A stretch of 64,000 nucleotides of DNA from contig JAVZHQ010000002.1 of assembly GCA_038998335.1 (NCBI GenBank), forward strand, positions 32,001-96,000. Direction: 5' to 3'. The position numbers and the translations under genes are program-made. The notes beneath the pieces were generated by a model. It saw only the letters and a list, made by a program, of their open reading frames with translations, was not told where the DNA came from and did no database searches. This stretch comes from Candidatus Aenigmatarchaeota archaeon. GTDB taxonomy: Archaea > Aenigmatarchaeota > Aenigmatarchaeia > CG10238-14 > SCSR01. Below, piece after piece: positions 39,223 through 43,031 of the stretch (positions are counted from its first letter, which is position 1; each line of letters opens with the position of its first letter).

Positions 39223-39316
39223 GGGCCTATAGCTCAGCCTGGTTAGAGCAATCGCCTTATATGGCTCGCTTTCGTGAGAAAGCGATAGGTCGAGGGTTCA
39301 AATCCCTCTAGGCCCA
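39223..39316 (+). tRNA. tRNA-Ile(TAT) with 19-nt canonical intron at 37/38 (39262..39280)
   Basis: GGGCCTA/TAGGCCC acceptor, GCTC/GAGC D stem, ATCGC-CT-TAT-A^A-GCGAT anticodon arm, central splice helix CTTA/TGAG, T arm GAGGG-TTCAAAT-CCCTC. Confidence 0.85.
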
Positions 39317-42276: not shown

Positions 42277-42906
42277 ATGCTCAAGAAATTTTTGGTAATT
42301 TTTGGAATATTTCTTTTTTCTTTTATTTCTTACTTGTTCTTAAGTAGTCCTACAGCTATGAGTGTTTCACAAACAAACCCAAACTTTTGGTTTCCTCTCA
42401 GCATTTCTATAACTTTTTTAATTGTTCTTTTGCTTCTTTTAAACATAGACGAAAGAAAACTAGCAGAAAAAGTAGGAATTCTGAAAAAAATAGAGGAGCA
42501 GGAAGCTATAGAAAGAGTAAGAGAGGTTAGAAAACAGTTTGGTCTTGAGAAATATTACGAAGAACTTAGAAGAGCTAGGGAGAAGGCTGAATCAATTTAT
42601 CATAATATAAAGAAAGAGTTTGAAAAAAATGAAATTAGTGGTTTAAAAGGTGATGAAGTTAAATTATTCTACGCAAAATCCATGGTTGACGAGCTTTATG
42701 GAGCTATGCACTATTTAAAACTTAAAAAACCGAACAAAGTAATAAGATACTTGGAAGATGCTAGAAGAGCTTGTGAAGAGTTAGGCTATTCTGACTTTGC
42801 TGAAGAACTCTGGCTTTTGCAAGGAAAGATGGAAGTAACTTATAATCAACAGAAAAAAATGCTAAAAGATATTCAAGAAAAAATGTGGAAACCCTTTAAT
42901 GAATAA
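42277..42906 (+). CDS. 2-TM membrane protein with helical tail (paralog of 41652..42236)
   Basis: Same architecture and motifs as the preceding gene. Confidence 0.65.
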   Translation: MLKKFLVIFGIFLFSFISYLFLSSPTAMSVSQTNPNFWFPLSISITFLIVLLLLLNIDERKLAEKVGILKKIEEQEAIERVREVRKQFGLEKYYEELRRAREKAESIYHNIKKEFEKNEISGLKGDEVKLFYAKSMVDELYGAMHYLKLKKPNKVIRYLEDARRACEELGYSDFAEELWLLQGKMEVTYNQQKKMLKDIQEKMWKPFNE

Positions 42907-43031
42907 TAGCGGGGGCACGATTTGAACGTGCGACCTTTACCCCAGACTTAAGTCTGTCCGGGTGTCACAAGAGCAGCCTTATGAGCCATTCGCAAAACTT
43001 CGGCGAGCACTCCAGGCTGCTCTACCCCGCT
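42907..43031 (-). tRNA. Initiator tRNA-Met(CAT) with three introns: 29/30 (42988..43000), 38/39 or 37/38 (42963..42978), 43/44 (42937..42957)
   Basis: Removing 13, 16 and 21 nt gives AGCGGGGTAGAGCAGCCTGGAGTGCTCGCCGGGCTCATAACCCGGAGGTCGCACGTTCAAATCGTGCCCCCGCTA (75 nt), with A1-U72 and three G-C anticodon-stem pairs. 4-bp central helices TCGC/GCGA, TCAT/GTGA and ACCC/GGGT with 3-nt bulges. Confidence 0.9.

Follow-up and report, generated by a model that had tools for sequence, protein, structure and literature searches.

A canonical-position intron antisense to the D arm as a candidate splicing scaffold in a three-intron archaeal initiator tRNA-Met gene

Archaeal tRNA introns are usually viewed as separate units, each of which needs just a local splice motif. 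For the archaeal endonuclease EndA, that motif has a 4-bp central helix, with the cuts made in 3-nt bulges. The initiator tRNA-Met gene in the 64,000-nt stretch of archaeal DNA that we analyzed (here, the window) raises the question as to whether an intron may also serve its neighbors: one of its introns is antisense to the D arm of its own tRNA, and another has a splice motif that takes up the 3' strand of the D stem. In Thermoproteales and other archaea, tRNA genes with several introns are spliced by EndA at BHB, hBH, or BHL motifs (Sugahara et al. 2007/2008, via excerpts of PMC4033280 and PMC4090602), and excerpts of a 2014 review give three introns per tRNA gene as the known maximum (PMC4033280).

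The gene occupies 125 nt on the minus strand (43031..42907) and is of the archaeal type with inserts. It is not reported by tRNA-finding programs: ARAGORN calls three tRNAs in the window and Rfam four, none of them at the initiator locus, and a permissive Rfam threshold likewise returned nothing relevant there. In a spliced dynamic-programming alignment to the intron-free homologue L010, the gene contains introns at 29/30 (13 nt), 37/38 (16 nt), and 43/44 (21 nt). Here, we will refer to these as i1, i2, and i3. An earlier reading of this DNA from its letters alone (the sequence-only reading) had counted two introns, and what it called intron 2 is the canonical-position intron, i2. According to the spliced alignment and the segment table, and all on the minus strand, exon 1 (tRNA positions 1-29) lies at 43001..43031, i1 at 42988..43000, exon 2 (positions 30-38, with the CAT anticodon) at 42979..42987, i2 at 42963..42978, exon 3 (positions 39-43) at 42958..42962, i3 at 42937..42957, and exon 4 (positions 44-73) at 42907..42936. 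These coordinates draw i2 at 38/39; owing to an A/A ambiguity, the 37/38 frame (42964..42979) is equally valid.

Removal of all three introns restores a canonical tRNA that folds as a cloverleaf (-35.8 kcal/mol) and whose exon layout equals that of intron-free homologues such as L010 and L016. The CCA end is not encoded, and the 3' end of the gene, at 42907, abuts a plus-strand open reading frame (42277..42906). Elsewhere in the window, ARAGORN labels 39223..39316 (plus strand) as "tRNA-Stop (tta)." By eye, this locus has a TAT anticodon and an intron of ~19 nt after position 37, and the "stop" label is probably a mis-parse of an intron-containing tRNA.

We found a single copy of the initiator gene in the genome (1.0 Mb, 9 contigs, 90% complete), and the gene must therefore be spliced. 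One gene with an EndA catalytic domain was found as well (L057:1474-2040, minus strand of contig 1 of G000), a 188-aa open reading frame that matches PF01974 at 95.1 bits. Relaxed BHL motifs have been described, and DPANN endonucleases have been linked to heavy disruption of tRNA genes (excerpts of PMC12397907 and PMC5829648), the link being drawn for alpha4-type enzymes with an extra loop (PMC5829648, in part). The DNA runs that contain the stretch are labeled as hot-springs metagenomes, and no RNA run is listed for it. Two metatranscriptome runs from a study with a related strain yielded 0 matching reads in the ~3% of each run that was read, and the DNA contigs compared alongside them showed only a strain variant resembling L003.

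The 5' strand of the D arm together with the start of the D loop (positions 9-17a, AGAGCAGCCT, 43023..43014, minus strand) is the exact reverse complement of AGGCTGCTCT (42979..42970, minus strand), just as the sequence-only reading had stated, and the same pair was recovered as an inverted repeat. The antisense element (42970..42979) and its target (43014..43023) are both read on the minus strand. The element comprises A38 plus bases 1-9 of i2, or, if i2 is placed at 37/38, its opening ten bases, in which case the complete 10-nt antisense stretch lies inside the intron. When the gene was shuffled 3000 times with its dinucleotides preserved, a perfect stem of at least 10 bp arose in 5 cases, and the AT-rich window holds 21 inverted repeats of at least 10 bp at short spacing. 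By itself, then, the 10-bp repeat appears only moderately unusual, and it is suggestive rather than compelling. Stronger evidence that the pairing did not arise by chance comes from its recurrence in related genes, described below.

The precursor folds to an RNAfold minimum of -59.4 kcal/mol (z -4.85), a value that none of 200 shuffles equaled. The D:i2 helix is part of this minimum-energy structure and is nested within it, in agreement with the earlier claim that no pseudoknot is involved. In the folding model, the 10-bp helix has a probability of 0.85-1.00 at 37, 60, and 75 C, and while i2 is present, the D stem and the anticodon stem are predicted to be blocked (P 0.00-0.01). Among the genes compared, the D:i2 helix of the window gene is the longest that is perfectly matched, without G-U pairs.

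We next consider i1, whose central helix pairs T24-C27 (43003..43006, minus strand) with the four bases that precede its last two (42990..42993, minus strand). As had been proposed, formation of the i1 motif ties up the D stem on its 3' side. The same proposal assigned G22-C23 to the motif. These bases can pair with G31-C32, but RNAfold favors pairing of G19-U21 with G31-C34, and the two versions are indistinguishable by comparison since all of the bases concerned are invariant exon bases. The central helix shows a standard pair in 100% of cells across the 11 i1-bearing genes of 12 aligned, and it covaries through wobble changes plus one change on both sides; in L011, CCGC:GCGG replaces TCGC:GCGA. 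The 3' splice site of i1 falls within a 3-nt bulge and the 5' site within the closing loop, which makes the motif a bulge-helix-loop.

The sequence-only reading proposed that i2 acts as a chaperone for i1 by freeing the 3' strand of the D stem. For the window gene, the folding model agrees: the i1 central helix is predicted at P 0.92 with i2, 0.17 with i2 deleted, and 0.22 with i2 shuffled, and the D stem goes from P 0.00 with i2 to 0.95 without it. The gain shrinks with temperature, however, from 0.76 with i2 against 0.31 without it at 60 C to 0.63 against 0.43 at 75 C. Nor does the effect extend to most relatives. In 9 of the 30 genes that carry both i1 and i2, the natural i2 lifts the predicted i1 helix by at least 0.3 over deletion, and the count over shuffles is also 9. 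In none of the 30 does the natural i2 lower the helix by 0.3 or more, and in 18 the i1 helix is not predicted at all, often owing to its G-U pairs.

Other introns can have a similar predicted effect. An intron in the 5' strand of the D arm likewise promotes the i1 helix in silico in L039, L048, and L049. The L011 gene (genome G050) has i1 and a T-loop intron without i2; its i1 helix is predicted at P 0.97, falling to 0.13 after the T-loop intron is removed, which hints that different introns may be able to perform the same job. In L009 (G006), which lacks i1, a stretch of the 37/38 intron looks by eye like the last part of i1, with the potential to pair with T24-C27; this may reflect intron sliding or a swapped partner.

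The third intron, and a splice motif that uses the 3' end of i2, were absent from the earlier scheme. The i3 motif is a textbook hBHBh', with a GAC:GUC outer helix, a central helix of A-C39-C40-C41 with four i3 bases, 3-nt bulges, and an inner hairpin (h', 42943..42956, minus strand) in which each of the 5 pairs shows two-sided changes among relatives. The GAC strand of the outer helix is the 3' end of i2 in the 37/38 frame (42964..42966, minus strand), and its partner is G46-U47-C48 of the variable loop (42932..42934, minus strand). In the 12-gene alignment, this outer helix is paired in 97% of cells, and L050 carries one covariation, a compensating change from GAC/GUC to GGC/GCC. The 3' trinucleotide of i2 pairs at all three positions with 46-48 in 18 of 23 genes with i3 versus 3 of 23 without it (leaving out the unparsed L035 and L040), and in genes without i3, i2 ends mostly in G rather than C. 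This strong association, together with the covariation, is the basis of the i2-i3 dependency and argues that the i3 motif needs i2 to be still present. In silico and by comparison, one intron's motif thus appears to depend on another in two instances: the outer helix of i3 on i2, and, in this gene, the i1 helix on i2.

Both motifs can be accommodated in a single fold. A structure combining the acceptor stem, the D:i2 helix, the i1 motif, the full i3 motif, and the T arm has a computed energy of -58.2 kcal/mol, 1.2 above the minimum, and RNAalifold returns the same architecture for four genes, from two genera, that have only i1, i2, and i3.

How i2 itself would leave is a further question. Its own relaxed motif consists of the anticodon stem and a central helix of C32-A35 with the four bases preceding the last two of i2, with a 3-nt bulge at the 3' site. 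The motif is poor in this gene, with 3 of 4 central pairs and no inner helix; in most relatives, both end pairs of the central helix are kept. The antisense element lies in the loop of this motif. On geometric grounds, it is incompatible with the D:i2 helix, because only 0-1 nt would be available to span the length of that helix. We also considered whether the D:i2 helix might supply the inner helix (h') for the i2 motif, and set this aside by a geometric argument, since a linker of 0-1 nt would have to lead from the far end of an 8-10-bp helix back to the central helix. A pseudoknot that combines the D:i2 helix with the anticodon stem was judged sterically marginal.

The earlier reading had also suggested folding the partially spliced intermediates, and here the outcome cuts both ways. 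In the full precursor, the D:i2 fold is 8.1 kcal/mol more stable than a cloverleaf-like fold; the margin is 6.8 without i1 and 2.5 without i1 and i3, and its narrowing makes a later refolding plausible once i1 and i3 are gone. Yet after the removal of both, the D:i2 helix remains favored in the model (P 0.85-0.99), and the balance would have to be tipped by proteins or tertiary contacts that lie outside it. The release of i2 is the weakest step of the scheme set out below.

To place the gene among its relatives, we compared initiator genes across the phylum. A DNA search gave matches in 37 of 61 related genomes and in 39 of 70 genomes of the family, and a pattern scan of 371 phylum genomes gave 64 matches, some of which are intron-free genes that were matched via the second gap of the pattern. 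In all, 87 distinct initiator genes were parsed. This number excludes two that had been dropped beforehand, L053 (another Met tRNA, in G004) and L054 (cut by a contig end, score 62); L046 (with an unparsed intron inside the anticodon) and L073, L074, and L076-L087 (repeats of included genes) were left out. The 75-nt initiator tRNA gene is exceptionally broken up in this group, with as many as six introns (L049) and five in L029, L030, L033, and L048.

A 37/38 intron is present in 48 genes, 30 of which also have i1. An RNAduplex energy between i2 and the D region of -12 kcal/mol or below is found in 23 of these 30 versus 3 of the 18 without i1. Adding a shuffle p of 0.05 or below leaves 17 of 30 versus 1 of 18, and counting genera in which any member reaches -12 kcal/mol gives 13 of 17 versus 3 of 16. 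Fisher values of 7e-5 and 5e-4 overstate this association between i1 and the antisense element, since the genomes share ancestry and are not independent samples, and since genes with i2 were favored by the phylum scan.

The element is present in 5 of the 6 families that have both i1 and i2 and always falls on the 5' half of the D arm. Its register shifts, from positions 9-17a to 12-19 (L097) and 14-21 (L030, L095, and L098), and in families f4, f10, f36, and f38, the complement of i2 lies in the D loop or in the 5' half of the D arm. In the window's genus, the other three i2-bearing genes keep 8 bp, one of which is in L004 a G-U pair created by a C-to-T change, and other genera of the family keep 6-9 bp of D:i2 pairing. 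Identity between genera stands at 60% in the 5' portion of i2 and at 43% in the i1 loop, with the structurally constrained i3 hairpin at 58%.

Covariation of the 10-bp pairing had been put forward as a check. The pairing does recur in relatives, but no covariation was seen: in a MAFFT alignment of 12 genes, 64-84% of cells of the D:i2 helix are paired, and because the exon strand never varies, no change on both sides is possible. A compensating change was sought in the phylum scan among genes with a variant D stem (GGGC:GCCC) and i2, and none was found; the variant-D-stem genes with i1 (L059 and L060) lack the element, and L089 has it in a D-loop register. What the analysis shows, across all three introns, is the sequences, the helices with the extent to which each is conserved or covaries, and the computed energies; formation of the D:i2 helix in the cell, its benefit to i1, and the order of the cuts are inferred.

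The comparison also turned up exceptions. Eight genes (L011, L020, L025, L036, L037, L041, L043, and L094) have i1 but lack i2 altogether. The sole intron of L025 is i1, and its D stem is predicted to form. Homologues that keep both introns without strong complementarity, which the sequence-only reading had named as evidence against its proposal, do exist: complementarity is weak or absent in 7 of the 30 genes, yet 23 are paired. Conversely, L089 combines an 11-bp pairing and i3 with the absence of i1. Judged from these genes, i1 does not require the D:i2 pairing, and the association between the two has exceptions. The link between them draws on conservation, on the association described above, and on folding models that work in a minority of genes, and it is partly supported by them; the earlier scheme was also too narrow.

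Two further features of the phylum set concern other introns. The four bases preceding the last two of the 10/11 intron (L029, L031, L032, L050, L055, L072, and L094) pair by eye with acceptor positions 5-8, as GGGT with GCCC or, in L032, L050, and L072, as GGAT with GTCC, so that this motif would need the acceptor stem to be opened. Very long inserts also appear in the spliced alignments of two genes, with ~150 nt in the T loop of L104 (G246) and a 37/38 intron of 93 nt in L091 (G236).

Taken together, these observations are best explained if i2 serves as a scaffold and is the last intron to leave, with its 5' part keeping the D arm open and its 3' end completing the i3 motif. We put the probability of this reading at roughly one half. 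Under it, i2 would act in cis in the unspliced transcript, where two pairings would form, one between its first 8-10 bases and the D-arm 5' strand and the other between its last three bases and G46-U47-C48 in the variable loop. The result would be a nonnative "pseudo-cloverleaf" of four arms, namely the acceptor stem, the D:i2 helix, the i3 bulge-helix-bulge, and the T arm, with the D:i2 arm capped by the i1 bulge-helix-loop. If the D:i2 helix forms in the cell as it does in the model, the D stem would be prevented, T24-C27 would be free for i1, and i1 and i3 would both be presented to the splicing endonuclease. The i2 motif, built from the anticodon stem and the pairing of C32-A35 with the 3' part of i2, would exclude both scaffold helices, and i2 would accordingly be cut last in the proposed order. 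Loss of i1 and i3 would let the anticodon stem form, tipping the RNA toward the cloverleaf.

A more ambitious version would make i2 a dedicated, conserved "assembly" intron that encodes a splicing programme. It would clamp the D arm with one end and the variable loop with the other, building a surrogate cloverleaf that presents i1 and i3 together to the endonuclease, and their removal would flip a switch that exposes i2. We regard this version as tentative and think it somewhat likelier to be wrong than right.

Other explanations for the D:i2 pairing must be weighed against the scaffold reading. The pairing could have been selected for a different role, as a folding lock that holds partly spliced precursors back from the L shape, CCA addition, aminoacylation, or initiation factors, or as a means of keeping the D loop open for a modification enzyme. 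The predicted block of the D and anticodon stems for as long as i2 stays is what a lock would produce, L089 retains its 11-bp pairing without i1, and in family f36, all four genes pair strongly, yet the i1 helix is unpredicted with or without i2 in three of them and is not raised in the fourth. A lock leaves unexplained, however, why the element is rare (3 of 18) where i2 is the only intron in the 5' half, and an i2 lacking the element already disrupts the anticodon loop. We consider this explanation unlikely.

About as unlikely, in our view, is that the complementarity was inherited from an old intron, perhaps one that had copied UGCUC from the 3' side of the D stem, and that it now does little. 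Such an origin would fit the observations that i2 can be aligned across five genera of family f1, that the element decays in g6, f8, and parts of f4 and f38 while both introns remain, and that i1 is spliced without i2 in eight genes. It sits poorly with the presence of the element in 5 of 6 families with both introns while the i1 loop falls to 43% identity, with pairing that is kept despite register shifts, and with several changes that preserve a G-U pair (L004, L033, and L096).

Less probable still is that the element serves as a flanking helix for D-arm introns (10/11, 14/15, and 20a/21) and is, in the window gene, the leftover of a lost one. Within the first set of 21 genes with i2, 13 also have a D-arm or D-loop intron, including L004 from the window's own genus, as do 9 of the 14 genes at -12 kcal/mol or below, and in the D5-bearing genes L004 and L031, pairing begins exactly at A11, adjoining the 3' splice site. 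Against this, the window gene and L002, L003, and L005, from two genera, keep 7-10 bp without any D-region intron, and the window helix, as the longest perfect match and one free of G-U pairs, does not look like the product of decay. By a geometric argument, moreover, there would be a break between the central helix and the partner strand of a flanking helix of this kind. Finally, chance complementarity in a GC-rich stretch, a possibility to which the inverted repeats in the window lend some color, is close to refuted by the recurrence of the same pairing in 23 of 30 related genes, and the rarity of such stems among shuffles of the gene also speaks against it.

The scaffold reading has partial precedents. 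As in the multi-intron tRNAs of Thermoproteales, the motifs are half exon and half intron, and the precursor must leave the cloverleaf; unlike those genes, with their maximum of three, relatives of the initiator gene described here have up to six introns. Ordered splicing of multi-intron tRNAs is already known: in Cyanidioschyzon merolae, RT-PCR revealed orderly, sequential processing of BHB motifs in which the 37/38 intron is always last, and in archaeal "nested" introns, the last motif forms only after other introns are removed (both from excerpts of PMC3728597). The proposed scheme resembles the algal one in that RNA structure would set the order of removal, with the 37/38 intron last. In C. 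merolae, according to the same excerpts, each motif folds alone and the order follows motif stability or position, whereas here the late intron would build parts of the early motifs and block the competing native helices.

Complementarity between an intron and exon bases of its own tRNA also has a parallel in the guide intron of archaeal pre-tRNA-Trp, in which a box C/D guide is reportedly intron encoded (Singh and colleagues, 2004). Box C/D guides have a C box (RUGAUGA) and a D box (CUGA) flanking the guide. We considered i2 as a guide RNP of this type and rejected it, as C and D boxes are absent from the 16-nt intron and from the 125-nt gene.

A different precedent is offered by split tRNAs, in which two non-tRNA flanks pair and thereby form the splice motif itself. 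Split tRNA halves of Nanoarchaeum and Caldivirga carry complementary leader and trailer sequences (PMC4033280, in excerpts). The similarity is that non-tRNA sequence pairs to assemble a splice motif; the difference is that here an intron pairs with mature tRNA sequence distant from its own splice sites. The excerpts available of a 2026 preprint on Asgard tRNA introns contain nothing on dependence between introns. In a full-text search of the main texts of openly available papers, we found neither an intron antisense to the D arm nor one supplying another intron's outer helix. What appears to be new here relative to the literature searched, from the sequence comparison, is the combination, in one canonical-position intron, of a sequence antisense to the D arm and a 3' end that would be lent to the motif of a neighbor.

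The proposed scheme would also bear on why tRNA finders miss genes of this kind; neither ARAGORN nor Rfam detects this essential initiator gene. The system is small, with 125 nt and one enzyme, and is suited to a clean in vitro test. If i2 does supply the helices of its neighbors and hold back the native fold, the order of splicing would be written in the RNA, and the introns of one gene would constrain each other's gain and loss, with a bearing on the origin of the many-intron tRNA genes of DPANN and Asgard archaea. If the "assembly" intron version were true, the introns of heavily split archaeal tRNA genes would be a coadapted set rather than independent insertions, which could explain how an essential, single-copy gene tolerates up to six of them.
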